The notes under the pieces: generated by a model
Told to the model about the DNA's origin: nothing
Databases searched by the model: none
The model's input: only the letters and a program-made list of their open reading frames with translations
DNA from: Candidatus Nomurabacteria bacterium
GTDB taxonomy: Bacteria > Patescibacteriota > Minisyncoccia > Phycocordibacterales > UBA9973
Direction: 5' to 3'
Length of the DNA: 64,000 bases
Assembly: GCA_943350445.1 (NCBI GenBank)
Contig: CALRAE010000002.1
Coordinates: 2,134 to 66,133 of the forward strand
Program-made: the position numbers and the translations under genes
In this document: one piece after another, positions 12,780 through 51,887 of the stretch
Layout: each line of letters opens with the position of its first letter
Position numbering within the stretch: the first letter of the stretch is position 1

Positions 12780-13724
12780 ATGGCAAATAGGCACCTCTCA
12801 AGATCAATAGTCCTACAAACCCTTTTCGAGTGGGATTTCTTGTCTGCTGATAAAAAGGCTGATACGTCTATTAAGGATGGCATCAAAGCTGCGCTAAATA
12901 GGAATTTGAAAGAATTTGCTCCTGGACTTGAGGATGATGATTTTGTGTCTTCTCTTATGAATGGTGTATTAGAAAAACATACCATTATAGATAAAATTAT
13001 AGAGAAAGCTGCGCCTGATTGGCCAATAGATAAAATTTCTGTTGTGGATAGAAATATTTTAAGAATTGGTTTAACAGAGCTTTTGTTTGGTGACAGATCA
13101 CAAGTCCCCCCAAAGGTGGCTATCAATGAAGCAATTGAACTAGCAAAAACTTTCGGCGGAGAAAATTCTGGTAAATTTATAAATGGAGTTCTCGGAGCTG
13201 TGTACAAAGAAATGGGCGAGCCAGATAAGGGACACCAAAAAGCTCCAGAAAAAAATAAAAACAATCGGGGGAAGGATGCGAAAGAGCCGGTAGACATATC
13301 GACTTTGCCTGTAGAGAATCTTGGTGGTGCGCTTGTGTATGCTAGAAAGGATGGGTCTATAATGTTTGCTCTGGTTCACGATGTATTTGGTTATTGGACT
13401 TTATCAAAGGGAAAGGTTGAGGAATCTGAAAACATTGAAGAGGGTGCATCAGAGGCTATTAAGAAAGAAATAGGCTTGGATATAAAAATAGAATCAAAAC
13501 TTGGTATAAATGAGTATGTCGCCACACATCCAACCAAAGGAAAGAGTTTAAAGAAGGTGGTTTACTTTTTAGCTTCGAGCGAGTATAAAGAGCTAGAGCT
13601 TGAGAAGTCTGGTGGACTGGACTCAGCTCGATGGTTCGAGATGTCTCTTGTTCCAGAGCTACGCATTTATAATGATATTATTCCACTTATTGCCAAAGCG
13701 GTTGAGATAATTAGTAAAAAATAA
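12780..13724 (+). CDS. nusB: Transcription antitermination factor NusB fused to a C-terminal Nudix-fold domain with a degenerate Nudix box
   Basis: The N-terminal ~140 aa have the NusB pattern (RHLSRSIVLQTLFEWDF). C-terminus reads GGALVYARKDGSIMFALV...GYWTLSKGKVEESENIEEGASEAIKKEIGL, i.e. GX5EX7 is kept but REUXEE is largely replaced (EAIKKE). Confidence 0.6.
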   Translation: MANRHLSRSIVLQTLFEWDFLSADKKADTSIKDGIKAALNRNLKEFAPGLEDDDFVSSLMNGVLEKHTIIDKIIEKAAPDWPIDKISVVDRNILRIGLTELLFGDRSQVPPKVAINEAIELAKTFGGENSGKFINGVLGAVYKEMGEPDKGHQKAPEKNKNNRGKDAKEPVDISTLPVENLGGALVYARKDGSIMFALVHDVFGYWTLSKGKVEESENIEEGASEAIKKEIGLDIKIESKLGINEYVATHPTKGKSLKKVVYFLASSEYKELELEKSGGLDSARWFEMSLVPELRIYNDIIPLIAKAVEIISKK

Positions 13725-14438
13725 TTGATTTTGCAAAATCACATGATTCAATTTTCAAATTTTGAGAAAAAAATAAAAATAATCTTTAAAGACAAAAATC
13801 TTTTGCAACAGGCTTTTATTCACCGTTCATATATAAATGAAAATCCATCGACCAATTTATCACACAATGAAAGGCTTGAATTTTTGGGTGATGCGGTACT
13901 CGAGCTAGTCGTCACAGATTTCTTGTATAAAAAATATCCTACATACACAGAGGGGGAACTAACGGCTCTGAGGTCTGCGCTAGTCAATGCTGTTATTATT
14001 TCTGAAGTTGCGACAGATCTAGGCATGAATGACTATCTGCTTTTATCTAAAGGCGAAACAAAAGACAAAGGTAAAGCGCGATCATATATTTTAGCTAATA
14101 CTTTTGAGGCATACATAGGAGCTTTGTACTTGGATCAAGGCATCGAAATAGTTGGTAAGTTTATAACTAAAACTCTTTTGCCGAAGACCGGAGAAATAGT
14201 TTCAAAGAAGCTCTGGCGCGATGCAAAATCCCTCGTGCAGGAAAAGGCGCAAGAATTTGTAAATGTCACTCCAGCATACAAGGTTCTCTCTGAATCTGGC
14301 CCTGACCATGACAAGCATTTCAATGTCGGTATCTACTTTGGTTCTACACTTGTAGGCGAAGGCAAGGGTCAATCCAAGCAAGAAGCAGAACAAAAAGCTG
14401 CTGAGTCTGCCCTAAAAGCTAAAAATTGGCTTGATTAG
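13725..14438 (+). CDS. rnc: Ribonuclease III
   Basis: Signature ERLEFLGDAVLELVV. C-terminal dsRBD. Confidence 0.85.
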   Translation: MILQNHMIQFSNFEKKIKIIFKDKNLLQQAFIHRSYINENPSTNLSHNERLEFLGDAVLELVVTDFLYKKYPTYTEGELTALRSALVNAVIISEVATDLGMNDYLLLSKGETKDKGKARSYILANTFEAYIGALYLDQGIEIVGKFITKTLLPKTGEIVSKKLWRDAKSLVQEKAQEFVNVTPAYKVLSESGPDHDKHFNVGIYFGSTLVGEGKGQSKQEAEQKAAESALKAKNWLD

Positions 14439-34566: not shown

Positions 34567-35778
34567 ATGAAGAAAAAAAATAAAAAATTAAATAAAAAGA
34601 TAAAAGTAGTAAAAAAGACTAGAAAAGTCGTCAAAAAGGTAAAAAAGATTAAAAAATTAATGAAATCAAAAGTTGTTGGCAAAAAAGCCTTGAAACTGTC
34701 TTCAGGTGAAAAGAAGGCAGTTAATTTGGCTCGTATTTCGAGCGAGCTGATAGAAAAAGGACGCAAGAGAGGGTTTATTACTTATGATGAGATCTTGAAG
34801 ACTTTCCCGGATATTGAAAATAATATTTTATTTTTAGATGAACTTTATGAGAAGTTTGCAGTTGCTGGTATCGATGTACTCGAAGGTGGGAATTTGCTTA
34901 ATCTAAATACAGATGCAACAGATAAAGATTTGAACAAGTCGACGATGCATGACTCTATTCAGATGTATCTGAAGGAGATAGGGCAATATCCGCTCATTCA
35001 TGCGAGTGATGAAAAAGACCTCGCAAAACGTATAGAGAAAGGGGATCTAGAAGCCAAAAACCTACTTGCTCGTGCGAATCTACGTCTAGTCGTTTCTATC
35101 GCCAAAAAATATGTAGGTAGATCAGCGAATCTAACACTTCTTGATCTAATTCAAGAGGGGAACTTAGGTCTTTTTAAAGCAGTTGAGAAGTTTGACTGGA
35201 CTAAGGGATATAAATTCTCTACCTATGCCACTTGGTGGATTCGTCAGTCTATCACTCGCGCTTTAGCCGACCAATCTCGCACTATCCGCATACCGGTGCA
35301 CATGGTGGAGACGATTTCTAAATACAAGCAAACTCATCGTCGCCTTTCTCAAGACTTGGGGCGAGAGCCACTTGCAGAAGAGATTGCGACCGAAATGGGT
35401 ATCCCAGTCGAGAAAATACATGTGATTGAAAATATCTCCCAAGAGACAGTCTCTCTTGAACAACCAGTTGGGGATGATGATGACAAATCAACACTCGAAA
35501 ACTTTATTCCAGATGATAAAATTTTACGTCCAGATCAAGAATCTTCACGCAGAATTCTCTCGGACCAGATTCGAGAGGTTCTAAATGAACTCAATCCAAA
35601 AGAACGCAAAATTCTCGAAATGCGTTACGGGCTACTTGATGGTATCCAACATACTCTAGAGAGAGTGGGTGAAGAGTTCGGCGTGACTCGCGAGCGTATT
35701 CGTCAAATAGAAGCAAAAGTGCACGAAAAACTCCGACAACATGAAAAGATCTCACGTTTAAAGAACTATTTCGATTAG
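34567..35778 (+). CDS. rpoD: RNA polymerase sigma-70 factor with a Lys-rich N-terminus
   Basis: Region 2 [29 protein letters not shown]. Region 4 [23 protein letters not shown]. Confidence 0.85.
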
Positions 35779-39048: not shown

Positions 39049-39058
39049 TTGATTGCGG

Positions 39059-39131
39059 AGCCGCCTCTCGGATTCGAACCGAGGACCTTCGCTTTACAAA
39101 AGCGTTGCTCTACCAACTGAGCTAAGGCGGC
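39059..39131 (-). tRNA. tRNA-Thr (anticodon UGU)
   Basis: Manual fold: acceptor GCCGCCU/AGGCGGC, D-arm GCUC-AGUUGGUA-GAGC, anticodon loop UUUGUAA, T-arm CUCGG-UUCGAAU-CCGAG. 73 nt, CCA not encoded. Confidence 0.8.
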
Positions 39132-45767: not shown

Positions 45768-48700
45768 GTGAAACAAAAAAATAAATTTTTTAGGGCATAT
45801 ATAAAAAGGTTTTCACTTGGACTCTTTGTCTTTGCTTTTTTTGTTTTTCTACCTACTTCTAGTGTATTTGCAGCAGCTACAAAAGACTCATTAATGAATG
45901 CTTTTAAGAGTTATGTAACTGTACTTACTACACCTGTTAACAATCAAGTAGTTACCACCACCCCACCTCCGGCACCCCTCCTTGATCAAGGAGGGGAAAG
46001 GGGTCCTAATCCTGTTTCTATTCCTGTAACACCACCACCCCCTTCGTCAAGCTCAGGGCAGGAAATAGTCTACGTCACACCACAACCTACAATAAACGAA
46101 GCAACCCTTCTTTCTGCTTTAAGAAACCTTCTCTCAAAAAAAGAAATTGCTAACAAATTACGTGGGTCACAAGGAGCACAAGGTATCCAAGGCCTTCAGG
46201 GTCCACAAGGAGCATCAGTTACACCAGCACCAAATCCTATCTCTTATCTACCTGTTCATATCTCATACCCTAATCCTTCTGTAAACTTCTCTGGTGGTGC
46301 TTCTGCAAACATAGCTAATCTATCTTCAAACATTCTCACTGCTACTACTTCTAATATTACTACTTTGAATGTGGCTGGAACTTCTACTCTTGCAGGAACT
46401 CTAAATGTCACTGGTGCCGTCACTCTTCCGTCTTCTGGAAGTTTAACTTCGCCTTTGGTTATTGGTTCTACATCTGCTAATGGCACTTTGACCTTAGAAG
46501 GTAACAACACTACAGGCAATACCGCAACTAATGCAAACTTAATATTCAAGGTTGGTAATAATGCAGCAACTACTGCGATGACTATTTTGAATAATGGCAA
46601 TGTGGGGGTGGGGACGACGACTCCAGGAAGATTTGTCGATTTGTTTTATACGGAGCCAGGTGCAACTCGTGCTTACAATTACCTACGTTTGACTGCTAAT
46701 AGTGCTGTGGGAGCTCATCATGGTACATCTGTCATCGAAGGATTTTATAAGGATAGTGGAAACGGTAATAGTTTTACTCACAGCCAGATCGCATTGGAGG
46801 GGACATCAGTCGGCAATGGTGCTGTAAATTCTATTGGTGAAATCTTGTTTTTGACAAAGTCAGATACAGGTAGCGCGTCAGCATTGCCTACTGAAAAGAT
46901 GCGTGTGACTAGTGATGGAAAATTACTTATTGGAACCAATCGAAATGGTACTGAGGATGGTGATTTGAGTTTCTATGGTATTTCCAATAGACTCATTTCT
47001 ATAGGATCAAATCCAAGTACCAATGTGGAAGGTAAAGACTTAACTATTAGGGCAGGAAATCCTTACCCGTCATCCACCAATCTAACAGGAGGGACTCTCA
47101 ATCTTTCAGGTGGAAAATCATCTGGCACAGGGACATCACAAATTCAATTCCAGACTGCTACCGCAGGTTCTACAGGAAACTCTGTTGTGACCCCAACAAC
47201 TAAAATGACAATTTTAGGTTCCGGCAACGTGGGGATTGGGACGACGAGTCCAGGTCTCCCACTCCAAGTTGTTGGTCACGTAAATGAATTTATTGCAGAT
47301 TTTTTATATAGCTCCTCTGGCTCAGGCGTTGCAGTTGGTGGTGGGGTTAATGGCACAACCGCATGGGTAGCGAGTGATTATCTTGGTGCGACTGAACCAA
47401 AACTACATTTAGCAACCTGGTCTAATCGTGCTAATGCAAATGGTATCACTATTGATACCTCTGGCAACGTCGGGATCGGGACGACGAATCCTAGTATCGG
47501 TTCGTGGGGTAAGGCTTTGACCATTCTTAATAACGGCTTGAACACTACCGCAGCCGCACTTGAAATTGCTTCTTTTGGACTCACAGCAGGAGACGGAGAA
47601 AGCGCTCTTAGTTTTGTAAATGGTGTTGATCTAGGTAATCGTTGGGAGGTGGGACGAATTCAGGCAATTCGTGGTGCTACCGACAATGGTTCAGGTCATA
47701 TTGCGCTATCTACACGAGTGAGTGCAACAGGAGGAGGTTTGGCTGAAGTGATGCGCTTGACTGACGATGGCAAAGTCGGTATCGGCGACACTACTCCAGA
47801 TTATAAATTAGACATAGAGACAGATGTTGCTTCGTATGTTGCCAACTTCTTCAATGATGGCAATCTTGCCACCCGTAGCGGTATCCTTATCCAAGGAGGC
47901 TTAGATGATCACACTGCAGCCGGACCATCCACTCTCATTGGTTTCCAAGATGGTGACGGTGGTGCTGTCGGATCAATCACTTTTGGTTCATCTGCCACAG
48001 CATACAACACTACATCAGACCAAAGATTAAAGAATTTAGTAAACGAAAATACTACTTCATCTCTCAATATCTTAAATCAAATAAAAATTCATGATTTCAC
48101 ATGGAAAGAAGATGCTAACCATAATCTATACACTGGAATCTTCGCTCAAGAGCTCTATGATGTTTATCCTCACGCAATTACTAAACCAATCAATGATGCA
48201 GACAACTGGATGGTGGATTATTCTAAACTCACCCCTGTAATGATCGCATCTATCCAAGAACTAGATCTAAACTTAAATAGTATCGCGGGCACTATCACTC
48301 CACTTGCTGGCTCAGCCAATGAATCTTTCGTGAATGCTTTCTTCGCAAACATTTTTTCCAAGGTTGATAATTGGATGGCGGATCGGGCGAATGGGATAGG
48401 AGATTTCTTTGCAGACAAAGTACATACAAAGCAAATCTGTGTTGCGAAAGCTGATGGCACAGAATTTTGTGCAGATGGTGACCAACTTCAAGCTATGGCA
48501 GGGGGATCAGGAACACCTCCAGCGCCAACCCCTACTCCAGCTCCAGTCCCCGCACCATCATCCGACACCACTCCACCAGTCATCACCCTCACAGGTGAAT
48601 CTACAATAACTTTAAACGTGGGAGACACATATACTGAACAAGGAGCCACAGCCACAGATAATGTAGACACAGGAGTAGCTGTCATAATCAGTGGTTCTGT

Positions 48701-48800
48701 AGATACATCTGTTGCAGGCACATACACTATCACTTATAATGCCACTGACACAGCAGGGAATAATGCGATAGAGGTGGCGAGGAGTGTAGTGGTTCAATAA
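45768..48800 (+). CDS. Large secreted fibre protein (GTG start). Collagen-like G-x-y triplets, repeated NVGIGTT(S/N)P beta-helix-like motifs, a peptidase-S74-type intramolecular chaperone domain, a Pro/Thr linker and a C-terminal Ig-like (DUF5011-type) domain
   Basis: Signal/TM N-terminus. GSQGAQGIQGLQGPQGAS. At least 4 NVGIGTTxP repeats. S-D-x-R-L-K motif TSDQRLKNL followed by ..GIFAQELYDVYPHAI..VDYSKLTPVMIASIQEL. (PT)n linker. C-terminus ITLTGESTITLNVGDTYTEQGATATDNVD..VAGTYTITYNATDTAGN. Confidence 0.6.
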   Translation: MKQKNKFFRAYIKRFSLGLFVFAFFVFLPTSSVFAAATKDSLMNAFKSYVTVLTTPVNNQVVTTTPPPAPLLDQGGERGPNPVSIPVTPPPPSSSSGQEIVYVTPQPTINEATLLSALRNLLSKKEIANKLRGSQGAQGIQGLQGPQGASVTPAPNPISYLPVHISYPNPSVNFSGGASANIANLSSNILTATTSNITTLNVAGTSTLAGTLNVTGAVTLPSSGSLTSPLVIGSTSANGTLTLEGNNTTGNTATNANLIFKVGNNAATTAMTILNNGNVGVGTTTPGRFVDLFYTEPGATRAYNYLRLTANSAVGAHHGTSVIEGFYKDSGNGNSFTHSQIALEGTSVGNGAVNSIGEILFLTKSDTGSASALPTEKMRVTSDGKLLIGTNRNGTEDGDLSFYGISNRLISIGSNPSTNVEGKDLTIRAGNPYPSSTNLTGGTLNLSGGKSSGTGTSQIQFQTATAGSTGNSVVTPTTKMTILGSGNVGIGTTSPGLPLQVVGHVNEFIADFLYSSSGSGVAVGGGVNGTTAWVASDYLGATEPKLHLATWSNRANANGITIDTSGNVGIGTTNPSIGSWGKALTILNNGLNTTAAALEIASFGLTAGDGESALSFVNGVDLGNRWEVGRIQAIRGATDNGSGHIALSTRVSATGGGLAEVMRLTDDGKVGIGDTTPDYKLDIETDVASYVANFFNDGNLATRSGILIQGGLDDHTAAGPSTLIGFQDGDGGAVGSITFGSSATAYNTTSDQRLKNLVNENTTSSLNILNQIKIHDFTWKEDANHNLYTGIFAQELYDVYPHAITKPINDADNWMVDYSKLTPVMIASIQELDLNLNSIAGTITPLAGSANESFVNAFFANIFSKVDNWMADRANGIGDFFADKVHTKQICVAKADGTEFCADGDQLQAMAGGSGTPPAPTPTPAPVPAPSSDTTPPVITLTGESTITLNVGDTYTEQGATATDNVDTGVAVIISGSVDTSVAGTYTITYNATDTAGNNAIEVARSVVVQ
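45951..45999. repeat. Family B element, copy in frame inside the fibre gene (encodes ..TTPPPAPLLDQGGERG..)
   Basis: GTTACCACCaCCCCAcctccggcaCCCCTCCTTGatcaAGGAGGGG, a close match to 45652..45690. Confidence 0.65.
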
Positions 48801-48845: not shown

Positions 48846-49325
48846 ATGAAAAAAAAATATCTACCTGTTGTTATAATCATAAGTTTCTTTTTAATAATAT
48901 TCTCTTTGATTGAAGAGCCTACTCAAGACTTAACATCAGAGGGGATACAAAACATAAGGTATGTAAAAATTGCAGGGCAAAGTATTAAAGTTGATTTGGC
49001 TTTAACCAAAGATGCCCAAAATATGGGCCTATCCGGCCGAGAGGCTTTAGATAGCGACGAGGGTATGTTGTTTGTTTTCAAGTATTCTACTAGTCATCCA
49101 TTTTGGATGAAAGACATGAATTTCCCTATTGACATTATTTGGATCAGTGAAGATTTTAAAATAGTCTATATTAAAAAAAGTGCTCAGCCAGAATCATATC
49201 CAGAAGTTTACGAACCCAAAGGGAAAGGGCAATATTCGAGATATGTCTTAGAAGTTGTCGCTGGGTTTGCTGAAAAAAATAATCTAAAAGTGGGGGACAA
49301 AATTGAAAATTTTGTCAGTCCGTAG
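48846..49325 (+). CDS. DUF192-family protein (secreted)
   Basis: N-terminal hydrophobic segment. Conserved ..MNFPIDIIWISEDFKIVYI.. pattern. Confidence 0.5.
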   Translation: MKKKYLPVVIIISFFLIIFSLIEEPTQDLTSEGIQNIRYVKIAGQSIKVDLALTKDAQNMGLSGREALDSDEGMLFVFKYSTSHPFWMKDMNFPIDIIWISEDFKIVYIKKSAQPESYPEVYEPKGKGQYSRYVLEVVAGFAEKNNLKVGDKIENFVSP

Positions 49326-49535
49326 CACGACGGTGCGAGGAGCGGGTGGCGAAATTTTTCAACAGAAAAATATTTGCGACTACGGGTGGAGTTTTACTAA
49401 CTGAAACTTTTTGAAATATAACTTTTCTTTGGTACGGATTTTTCAATATAACCTTAGCCTTAAAAAATATTGAATTTCTGTGCGCGTCAGCCTACGAAAC
49501 CCCGCGAAAAGTTATATTTCGAAAAGTTTCTCACA

Positions 49536-49565
49536 AAAAGAAAATCCCCCGCTTTTGGCAGGGGA
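49536..49565 (-). terminator. Rho-independent terminator of rnpB
   Basis: Minus-strand read: CCCCUGC-caaaa-GCGGGGG followed by AUUUUCUUUUU. Confidence 0.55.
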
Positions 49566-49576
49566 CTTTCATTTTG

Positions 49577-50019
49577 TTGTAGGTGTCTATAAGCCGAATT
49601 TTGTCCCAATTTTGTTCACCACAGGTGATTCAAAATTGAGGACCCTGAGGATTTGTCGAAGGGTTCCCTCGACGTGGCTCGGGATGCTCAATTTTGTAAT
49701 TGCCTATGGCAAACAAAATTGGCAGATAACAATTTATCTAGGTCTAAAATTACTCTTAGACTCAAGCGATTCTTCCAAGCTTGCGCTTGGACACGATCTT
49801 GCACAGGGGTAAGGATTTAGCCGTTTCACTCTGATGTTACCACCAGACTATTCCATGGATTGCTCGATGGAACCCTAGCATCTCTGCATCAGCGTCTCTG
49901 CTCGCACCTATATATCACTATATGTGGGCGTTACCCACTACCTTTCTCCCTGATAAATCAGGGCTGTGTTCGGACTTTCCTCCCTATGAAATCATAGAGT
50001 AGCTATCCGACACCTACGC
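49577..50019 (-). ncRNA. rnpB: RNase P RNA (bacterial type)
   Basis: Minus-strand read has a P1 helix (GUAGGUGUC at the 5' end, GACACCUAC at the 3' end). It has P4 5' strand GGAGGAAAGUCCG, then ..GGUAACGCC.., then GGUGCGAGCAGAGACGC (P10-12-like), ..UGGUAACA..GGCUAAAUCC.. and P4 3' strand ACAAAAUUCGGCUUAUAG. TSS position fits the promoter. Confidence 0.8.
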
Positions 50020-50023
50020 ATAT

Positions 50024-50075
50024 ATTATACAATAGTTGCAATTTACTTGCAATTTTTTTGCAAGTATGCTATACT
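50024..50075. promoter_or_regulatory. Back-to-back sigma70-type promoters sharing one palindromic -35 hexamer. Minus strand: TTGCAA(50052..50047)-17 bp-TATAAT(50029..50024), driving rnpB. Plus strand: TTGCAA(50047..50052)-17 bp-TATACT(50070..50075). Two more TTGCAA copies lie at 50036 and 50058 on an 11-bp register.
   Basis: Hexamers and spacings counted directly. The minus TSS predicted ~7 nt after the -10 coincides with the rnpB P1 5' end (~50017). Confidence 0.55.
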
Positions 50076-50205: not shown

Positions 50206-51021
50206 TTGCGCGGCATGATTTCGCTAAATCATATGAAAAAAGATACTTCTAAAAATAATTCCGGTGAGACTTCGTGGGGCTCTGTAGCAGGGTGGTATGA
50301 CGAGCTCTTAGAAGAATCAGACGATTCCTTTCAGGCGAAGGTTATTTTACCGAACCTGCTCCGAGTTCTTAATGTTAAGGCGGGTATGAACATAATTGAT
50401 ATTGCTTGTGGGCAGGGATATTTTAGTCGGGCGCTTGAAAATGCTGGGGCGCAGGTGACTGGTGTGGATATATCAAGTGAACTTATAAAAAAAGCGCAAG
50501 AACGTTCTCCTAAAAATATCAGTTTTTGTGTCGCCGAAGCGGACAAACTCTCTTTTTCAAAAGATGCTAGTTATGATGCAGCCATAATTATTTTAGCTAT
50601 TCAAAATATTAAAAATTTCGCTGGCGCGCTAGCTGAGTCCGCGCGGGTTCTCAAACCAAAAGGCAAGCTTGTGATTGTTTTAAATCATCCAGCATTTCGA
50701 ATTCCGCAAAATTCTAGTTGGGATTGGGATGTAAAGAAGGGGAGGCAGTATCGCCGAATCGATTCTTATTTAAAAGAATATCAGATAGAGATAGATATGA
50801 CCCCCGGGGAAAAAGATCCATCCAAGAAAAAGAAAACACTTTCATTTCATCGACCACTTCAATCTTATTTTAAATTCTTAAACAAAGCCGGATTTGCTGT
50901 CTCGGGTCTAGAAGAATTAATTTCTCACAAAAAGAGTCAAAAAGGTCCGCGCTCAATAGAAGAGGACAGGATACGTAAAGAAATTCCAATGTTTCTGATG
51001 CTAGAAGCTAAAAAGCTTTAA
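50206..51021 (+). CDS. Class I SAM-dependent methyltransferase
   Basis: Motif I IIDIACGQGYFSRAL. Acidic post-I residue. Methyltransf_11/25-like. Confidence 0.65.
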   Translation: MRGMISLNHMKKDTSKNNSGETSWGSVAGWYDELLEESDDSFQAKVILPNLLRVLNVKAGMNIIDIACGQGYFSRALENAGAQVTGVDISSELIKKAQERSPKNISFCVAEADKLSFSKDASYDAAIIILAIQNIKNFAGALAESARVLKPKGKLVIVLNHPAFRIPQNSSWDWDVKKGRQYRRIDSYLKEYQIEIDMTPGEKDPSKKKKTLSFHRPLQSYFKFLNKAGFAVSGLEELISHKKSQKGPRSIEEDRIRKEIPMFLMLEAKKL

Positions 51022-51801: not shown

Positions 51802-51887
51802 GCGTCGATGGTAGAGTGGTCAAATACGACACGCTGTAAACGTGTTGCCTTCGGGCTTCGGGGGTTCGAATCCCTCTCGACGCACCA
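51802..51887 (+). tRNA. tRNA-Tyr (anticodon GUA), long variable arm, CCA encoded
   Basis: Manual fold: acceptor GCGUCGA/UCGACGC, anticodon stem-loop ACACG-CUGUAAA-CGUGU, variable arm GCCUUCGGGC, T-loop GGGGG-UUCGAAU-CCCUC, 3' ACCA. Confidence 0.8.

Follow-up and report, generated by a model that had tools for sequence, protein, structure and literature searches.

The window analyzed here is a 64-kb stretch of DNA that matches an 81.6-kb metagenome contig (ENA ERZ27280223). It encodes core chromosomal genes, namely rpoB/C, rpoD, dnaG, gyrB, pheST, thrS, smc, RNase R, RNase III and trmD, together with S2/Tsf, mreBC, tgt, typA, mnmA and alaS, and neither a transposase nor a homing endonuclease was found in the window. 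On its minus strand, at 49579..50017, lies a 439-nt rnpB gene for RNase P RNA that runs from the 5′ to the 3′ strand of P1. The gene stands in a conserved synteny of mreB, mreC, tgt and a DUF192 gene followed by rnpB in convergent orientation. Homologues of the adjacent DUF192 protein were named Candidatus Nomurabacteria, Paceibacterota or Patescibacteria, and the same lineage names were borne by ten GTDB species genomes sharing the 3′ anchor of rnpB.

Several features of the neighborhood appeared to be specific to individual lineages. Between tgt and DUF192, the window encodes a 1010-aa protein (45768-48800) with Peptidase_S74 (endosialidase-chaperone) and bacterial Ig-like domains; tgt overlaps DUF192 directly in most relatives, and this surface or tail-fibre-like gene is lineage-specific. 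Between the DUF192 stop codon and the rnpB terminator, we found a 128-nt element (49403-49530) with 25-nt inverted repeats (GAAACTTTTTGAAATATAACTTTTC, 96% complementary), which is single-copy in the window. Hardly any spacer is present at this place in the relatives, which makes the element a lineage-specific insertion, possibly a MITE. A PemK-family toxin gene was found directly upstream of DUF192 in another related lineage (L041:1205-1594, the L035/L041 lineage described below). Elsewhere in the window, a NusB-NUDIX fusion protein (12780-13724) is encoded directly before the RNase III gene rnc (13725-14438).

The original prediction had read the minus strand of 49577-50019 as an RNase P RNA, and this reading held. 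Positions 1-367 of the class A model RF00010 aligned end to end to 49574..50018 (-) with 88.3 bits and E = 3.2e-27, the core helices were canonical, and syntenic orthologues at the same position downstream of DUF192 scored 104-128 bits against the same model, that is, above its threshold. The class A model beat the other members of the RNase P clan, and a lower-scoring overlapping clan match was suppressed. The gathering score of RF00010 is 100 bits, 12 bits above the match in the window, which therefore appeared only under an E-value threshold; the covariance-model search that had been proposed thus returned a highly significant match, but one that fell short of the family cut-off. A scan of the whole window at Rfam gathering thresholds yielded two tRNAs only and no RF00010 match. 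The prediction had also named two signs that would together speak against it, a sub-threshold score and unpaired P4 strands: the score did fall short (88.3 versus 100 bits), but P4 pairs fully. Across the clade, RF00010 scores ranged from 84 to 128 bits and straddled the cut-off, with some relatives at 84-98 bits. The fold of the whole RNA was far more stable than that of shuffled sequence (z = -10.1).

The minus strand has a single instance of every motif quoted in the prediction, and their order is the canonical one that it had given: GUAGGUGUC (50017-50009), GGAGGAAAGUCCG (49983-49971), GGUAACGCC (49935-49927), GGUGCGAGCAGAGACGC (49908-49892), UGGUAACA (49842-49835), GGCUAAAUCC (49822-49813), ACAAAAUUCGGCUUAUAG (49604-49587) and GACACCUAC (49587-49579). 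A base-by-base check of P1 (9 bp), P2, P3, P5, P7, P8, P9, P15, P18 and the P4 pseudoknot found zero non-canonical pairs. The 5′ strand of P4 (AAGUCCGAA, 49969..49977 on the minus strand) has a bulged U and pairs with 49591-49598 at 8 of 8 canonical positions. This helix, AAG(U)CCGAA / UUCGGCUU, differs from the Rfam consensus by the compensatory changes GG to AA and CC to UU, and the RNA has the bulged U and the conserved GGAAAGUCCG / CGGCUUA strands by which a class A P4 is recognized. The core helices P1, P2, P3, P5 and P7-P10, the conserved P8 and P9 loops and P11/P12 were all present, with helices covarying across 21 relatives.

Around this core, the peripheral architecture was reduced. 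A P5.1-like hairpin (49948..49963, minus strand) lies between P5 and P7 in place of the 5′ strand of P6 and was found in 21 of 21 relatives with differing sequences. The specificity domain (49807..49943, minus strand) comprises P7, P8 (GGGUAACGCCC), P9 and a P10-P12 portion of the long-P12 type and has no P13 or P14. P15 (49767..49798, minus strand) is reduced to a short 3-bp stem and a GCAA-capped hairpin, and P18 (49742..49761, minus strand; GUCUAAGA-GUAA-UUUUAGAC) ends in a GUAA tetraloop of the GNRA type. In the RF00010 alignment and per-helix folds, P6, P13, P14, P16, P17 and the GGU motif of L15 were absent from the window RNA; because these losses are common in CPR, we regarded it as a reduced class A derivative. 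Of the elements typical of class B (RF00011), namely P5.1, P10.1, P15.1 and P19, a P5.1-like hairpin and a P19 were seen, and P18 is of the class A type. The locus is supported by these sequence comparisons as the RNase P RNA gene of a Nomurabacteria-like Patescibacteria (CPR) bacterium, and the predicted RNA should cleave the 5′ leaders of pre-tRNAs as in any bacterial RNase P. As for the tRNA genes of the window (39057-39131 and 51802-51887), tRNA-Tyr encodes a 3′ CCA and tRNA-Thr ends in CCG instead; the CCA-binding GGU motif of L15 is missing from the RNase P RNA.

For comparison, relatives were gathered from genomes and metagenomes with the anchor AATTCGGCTTATAGACACCTAC and by look-ups starting from spurious ORFs, which resulted in a set of 25 distinct rnpB genes, 21 of them with full-length and four with partial RNAs, referred to below by L numbers. 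These were compared by anchored extraction and per-helix folding. The conserved core of the 21 full-length RNAs aligned cleanly. The segments of P3, the P5.1-like helix, the P15 arm, the GNRA-capped P18 and P19 each formed a hairpin in every RNA despite having unrelated sequences, which provides comparative support for the fold. The 554-nt rnpB gene of L022 (216-769, minus strand) has, in addition to the P19 module described below, a P3 of 37 nt and an AT-rich P15-arm expansion of 103 nt, with a base that matches the P15 arms of L016 and L021. Insertions seem to occur readily in the peripheral hairpins of CPR rnpB genes.

A sigma-70-type promoter (50024..50052, minus strand) with TTGCAA, a 17-nt spacer and TATAAT (10 of 12 consensus matches) precedes the gene, its -10 hexamer ending 7 nt upstream of the first P1 nucleotide, and a sigma-70 gene, rpoD, is itself encoded within the window (34567-35778). 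Downstream of the 3′ strand of P1, a 13-bp hairpin followed by a U-tract forms an intrinsic terminator whose sequence is conserved clade-wide. The terminator foreseen after the RNA is therefore present, although it spans 49570..49540 (-) rather than 49536..49565. From these signals, transcription of rnpB would start at or beside the first P1 nucleotide from its own sigma-70 promoter and stop at the conserved terminator. The terminator hairpin GAAAGUCCCCUGCCAAAAGCGGGGGAUUUUC was conserved at the equivalent sites in L003-L044 with covariation from CUGCC/GCGGG to CUACC/GUGGG; this conservation exceeds the need of a plain terminator, and the hairpin may serve as a processing or 3′-end element.

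Antisense to rnpB, a 110-aa ORF (49480..49812, plus strand) is mechanically present, and it had been taken for an artefact. This view was borne out: the ORF had zero NCBIfam matches, was not called in the ENA annotation, was absent from a 15-billion-protein collection, and its frame was broken by a frameshift in L027. Its three weak matches among 5.8 billion proteins were all spurious ORFs antisense to other rnpB genes, and we rejected it as a real protein.

The RNA had been noted as somewhat long, with expansion segments as the suggested reason. This guess proved apt, as about 100 extra nt reside in P19, in addition to a long-P12 architecture common to the relatives. RNAs of relatives at the syntenic position were 289-364 nt long. 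The spacing between the P4 strands was 382 nt in the window versus 232-286 nt in relatives, and all of the difference lies between the 3′ strands of P2 and P4. Here the site of the whole P19 hairpin is occupied by a 120-nt module with 44-48 bp (49605..49724, minus strand), compared with a P19 region of 16-36 nt in the 18 element-free full-length RNAs (16-24 nt, except for 36 nt in L030). The short P19 of relatives consists of 5-11 bp, usually with a UUCG or GNRA cap, and its stem sequence drifts freely; that of L013, for example, is GCCCCGUUCGCGGGG. L014 and L019 were tentatively regarded as lacking P19 from their CTAGA-to-P4 distance, but alignment and per-segment folds revealed short P19 hairpins in both. 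As no remnant of a short P19 stem was found around the module in any carrier, the module took the place of P19 as a whole instead of interrupting it. The module does not account for the sub-threshold score of the window RNA, because element-free relatives likewise score below the cut-off, including L013 (88.9 bits), which has the nearest backbone, and L021 (96.3 bits).

The two ends of the module pair in a 20-bp basal stem (49722-49703 / 49625-49606), followed toward the tip by an internal loop, a 10-bp stem, stems of 4 and 3 bp and an 8-bp apical hairpin. This rod has 48 bp with a dG of -62 kcal/mol (z = -9.7). In an alternative fold, each half forms a hairpin of its own (CAAUUUUG...CAAAAUUG stems) around a shared central hairpin, giving three local hairpins. 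The rod is favored over this fold by 8-19 kcal/mol. As the local hairpins would be the first to form while the RNA is being transcribed, the module is possibly bistable. P19 stacks coaxially on P2/P3, and its length differs among bacteria (PMC12974513). Since it extends this stack away from the active site, we infer that a long rod would be tolerated as a peripheral arm. No known ribozyme, intron or sRNA was recognized in the module by a permissive Rfam scan, which gave only noise of up to 14.5 bits, and the module contains no ORF. An intron was rejected because the module is below the size of group I or II introns and a bulge-helix-bulge motif is missing.

At least 5 of the 25 related rnpB genes, that of the window among them, have this module of 117-120 nt, always identically placed and oriented. 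The other carriers were L035 (JGI Ga0209429) and L041 (ENA ERZ27294292), which have identical RNAs, L022 (Ga0172379), L027 (Ga0209541) and L043 (Logan ERR12084921), the last with a more divergent copy that is ∼79% identical. The copies thus came from five independent assemblies or samples. Pairwise identities among the four close copies were 89-94%, compared with 66-84% for the rest of the host RNAs, universal core included, and the P3, P12, P15 and P18 helices of the carriers were unrelated to each other. Neither the 64 kb of the window nor ∼300 kb of related loci contained a second copy, and searches of viral contigs, phages and plasmids returned no match, so that no vehicle was identified. 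The module was thus never met outside rnpB, but all of the copies were obtained by rnpB-anchored searches, which does not prove that it is exclusive to rnpB.

All copies fold alike with a dG of -58 to -62 kcal/mol. Variable columns were depleted in the stems (3 of 74, versus 5 of 15 in loops; p = 0.003), and every change in the well-aligned stems of the four close copies was a UA/UG or AU/GU switch, which indicates selection on the sense-strand RNA. Sequence comparison thus shows the module helices to be under purifying selection. When L043 was added, the rod kept 138 of 140 pair cells and gained two mismatches; in the alternative fold, two double changes (A-U to G-C and U-A to C-G) were truly compensatory. 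Apparent double compensatory changes in the apical stem were left uncounted, since they were an artefact of alignment register caused by a one-position shift of the window hairpin.

The distribution of the module was patchy. Each of the four close carriers had an element-free RNA as its nearest rnpB backbone (window and L013, L035 and L006, L027 and L010, L022 and L039); the rnpB of L043 was too truncated for this comparison. In the DUF192 tree, carriers were scattered, with amino-acid identities of only 0.53-0.68 among them; L027 and L041 were closer to element-free relatives (0.77-0.81), and L043 had no close DUF192 relative. The nearest DUF192 relative of the window was L009 (about 84-86%), whose contig ends 48 nt after DUF192 and does not reach rnpB. 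For the upstream methyltransferase, the closest relative of the window was the element-free L026 with 87% identity. Carriers and non-carriers also shared metagenomes, L022 with L032 and L027 with L028 and L040.

The markers of L026 were discordant, its methyltransferase being 87% identical to that of the window but its DUF192, on the other side of rnpB, only 50%, which suggests local recombination or mosaicism around rnpB. The window genes compared, at 48846-49325 and 50206-51021, flank rnpB. Such conflicts between single-gene markers leave it less than certain that the distribution is also patchy on the true species tree. Divergence of the module tracked that of the host DUF192 with a Spearman coefficient of 0.94 over 6 non-independent pairs, a correlation compatible with both lateral exchange and ancient vertical descent followed by many losses. 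Moreover, the neighboring terminator hairpin is ∼90% conserved across the clade by plain descent, so the high identity of the module alone does not show transfer.

The module is bordered by flanks that are invariant clade-wide, CUAGAUAAAUUGUUAUC upstream and ∼70 nt of J19/4, the 3′ strands of P4 and P1 and the terminator downstream. With such flanks, allelic exchange by homologous recombination is the simplest route, and the module is most likely an accessory P19 allele that is exchanged or lost by recombination through them. A cassette of this kind would be gained, lost or exchanged via the P2-3′ flank on one side and the flank of J19/4, P4-3′, P1-3′ and terminator on the other. Any transferred tract would have to be short, because P18, directly upstream of the module, differs between carriers. 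In L022, ACAGAAUUCGG adjoins an unchanged 3′ arm of the module, which is consistent with the module having arrived there as a unit. The 3′ arm itself (ACAAAAUUGGG, 49605-49615) is a tandem near-repeat of 11 nt of the P4-3′ strand (ACAAAAUUCGG, 49594-49604) within the adjoining J19/4 and P4-3′ segment (ACAAAAUUCGGCUU, 49591..49604, minus strand), which hints at an origin within rnpB by local duplication. Taken as a whole, an account in which the locus is a functional rnpB of a reduced class A type, with its own promoter and terminator and with the P19 module as a recombining cassette, appears to us very probable. Its demonstrated part is the identity and architecture of the RNA together with the recurrence, structure, conservation and patchiness of the module; the route by which the module spreads, its harmlessness for catalysis and any processing are presumed.

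Ancient vertical inheritance with repeated replacement remained viable as the history of the module. In this reading, the module would have been kept for a function of its own, for instance as an accessory arm for protein docking or folding; it would be ancestral to the clade, inherited vertically under strong constraint and repeatedly lost. The parallel divergence of module and host fits this account, as do the conserved stems with their pair-preserving changes and the near-repeat of the P4-3′ strand with its suggestion of an origin within rnpB. The two compensatory double changes in L043 support the local 5′ hairpin and would imply selection on a specific, possibly bistable fold. However, 20 of the 25 relatives are without the module and their P19 hairpins are not deletion derivatives of it; roughly 8 or more independent and precise replacements by unrelated short tetraloop hairpins would also be needed. 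We regard a retained domain as a serious contender, though one with the balance tilted against it.

Slightly behind it stands the possibility that the module resembles an intervening sequence (IVS), its long P19 duplex being cut by the host RNase III and not religated. The mature RNA would then consist of two pieces, ∼300 nt and ∼35-45 nt, that P1, P4 and the remaining stump of P19 keep together. The 20-bp basal and 10-bp stems make an ideal RNase III substrate, and the window encodes a candidate processing enzyme, the rnc product (13725..14438, plus strand), with Pfam Ribonuclease_3, Ribonucleas_3_3 and dsrm (dsRBD) matches; its link to the module is inferred. As in 23S rRNA IVSs, an extended stem-loop with paired ends (here the 20-bp basal stem) replaces a tetraloop-capped peripheral helix, P19, and it occurs sporadically and in similar form across diverged hosts (5 of 25 genes, 89-94% identical with a fifth copy at ∼79%, for host DUF192 identities of 53-68%). 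A naturally fragmented RNase P RNA does exist, as a P12 segment is excised in vivo in Thermodesulfatator indicus (PMC9945441). Given this and the insertions in CPR rRNA genes as precedents, excision of the module by RNase III is plausible and may occur. On the other hand, the break would fall inside the catalytic domain, between the 3′ strands of P2 and P4, and the 3′ fragment would be very short; excision as such also does not require the apical and central parts to be under purifying selection. The combined picture of an rnpB-specific IVS-like cassette, spread by recombination and cut by RNase III to give a two-piece ribozyme, or alternatively a bistable accessory domain, is put forward tentatively.

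That the module could be a miniature transposable element (MITE or PATE-like) with rnpB as its chance location seemed improbable to us. It does have terminal inverted repeats of 20 nt, its alternative fold has a similar hairpin on either side, and a second, unrelated inverted-repeat element lies 75 nt downstream (49403-49530), all of which could be read in this way. Against this, there is no target-site duplication: the flanks are UAUCUG and GACAAAA, and the sole nearby repeat is the tandem pair of 3′ arm and P4-3′. In 5 of 5 cases, site and orientation were identical and P19 was replaced outright, and the G.U pairs and UA/UG switches reflect selection on the sense strand at the RNA level. The absence of a second copy from the window, the ∼300 kb of related loci, viral contigs, phages and plasmids, the lack of a transposase gene in the window and the fact that the 5.8 billion proteins yielded just 3 matches, each a spurious ORF antisense to rnpB, point in the same direction. 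The weakest alternative, that the extra 100 nt are an assembly chimera or artefact or that the locus is a decayed rnpB pseudogene, as the metagenomic source and the sub-threshold score might suggest, can practically be dismissed, given five distinct copies that carry individual substitutions and come from independent samples and assemblers, intact core helices, promoter and terminator, and element-free relatives with equally sub-threshold scores.

With the recombining P19 cassette as the preferred reading, the patchy swap of a sequence-conserved P19 suggests that RNase P RNA, like the rRNAs of CPR, hosts cassette-like intervening elements. If RNase III does excise the module, natural fragmentation would be known from two bacterial RNase P RNAs, and this one would be the first to have the split in its catalytic domain; a retained module would be a candidate docking or folding domain. 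As far as the literature was searched, a conserved, patchy P19 replacement module has not been described.

Other expansions of peripheral helices in RNase P RNA offer points of comparison. In cyanobacteria, P12 carries an embedded and tolerated repetitive element that consists of short tandem repeats dispersed in the genome. The module is similarly an element in a peripheral helix of rnpB, but it is a structured hairpin and single-copy as far as seen. In T. indicus, an expansion of P12 is excised from the type A RNase P RNA post-transcriptionally, and the fragmented RNA is functional (PMC9945441). Both cases involve a long expansion of a peripheral helix in a type A RNA; that of T. indicus, however, is in P12 of the specificity domain, is known from a single species as a non-recurring segment and has demonstrated excision, whereas the module of the window is in P19 of the catalytic domain and recurs, its excision being hypothetical.

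The window RNA otherwise resembles previously described CPR RNase P RNAs. In 10 of 35 circular CPR genomes, these RNAs were under the Rfam cut-offs (Lui et al. 2021, PMC8172020); they lacked P13, P14, P16 and P17 and usually the UGG motif, had extended helices and needed manual refolding (PMC8172020). The window RNA is likewise class-A-like, sub-threshold and without P13, P14, P16, P17 and the UGG/GGU CCA-binding motif. Because sub-threshold CPR RNase P RNAs have thus already been published, the rnpB gene itself is ordinary, and it adds another case in which the class A gathering score of Rfam misses a real CPR RNase P RNA and gene callers add spurious ORFs. The published set differs in having an extended P15 and a missing P12, in leaving P19 unmentioned and in showing no conserved module shared between divergent rnpB genes (PMC8172020).

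Many short insertions without ORFs occur in CPR rRNA genes and have been read as horizontally spread IVSs processed by RNase III (PMC11270868). Like the module, 23S rRNA IVSs and CPR rRNA insertions are stem-loops that replace the tip of a helix, occur sporadically and are similar across hosts (PMC11270868, PMC4990558); the CPR insertions are abundant and are proposed RNase III substrates (PMC11270868, PMC4990558). The module differs in that its host is RNase P RNA and not rRNA, it has no ORF or intron signature, and its processing is hypothetical. Finally, P19 of type B and some type A RNAs, such as those of the PVC group, varies in length and is sporadically lost (PMC9945441, PMC12974513), and the module shares with it the position between the 3′ strands of P2 and P4. 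The usual P19 is short and drifts freely, as in the 20 element-free relatives, whereas the module is a 120-nt structure of 44-48 bp that is conserved in sequence.
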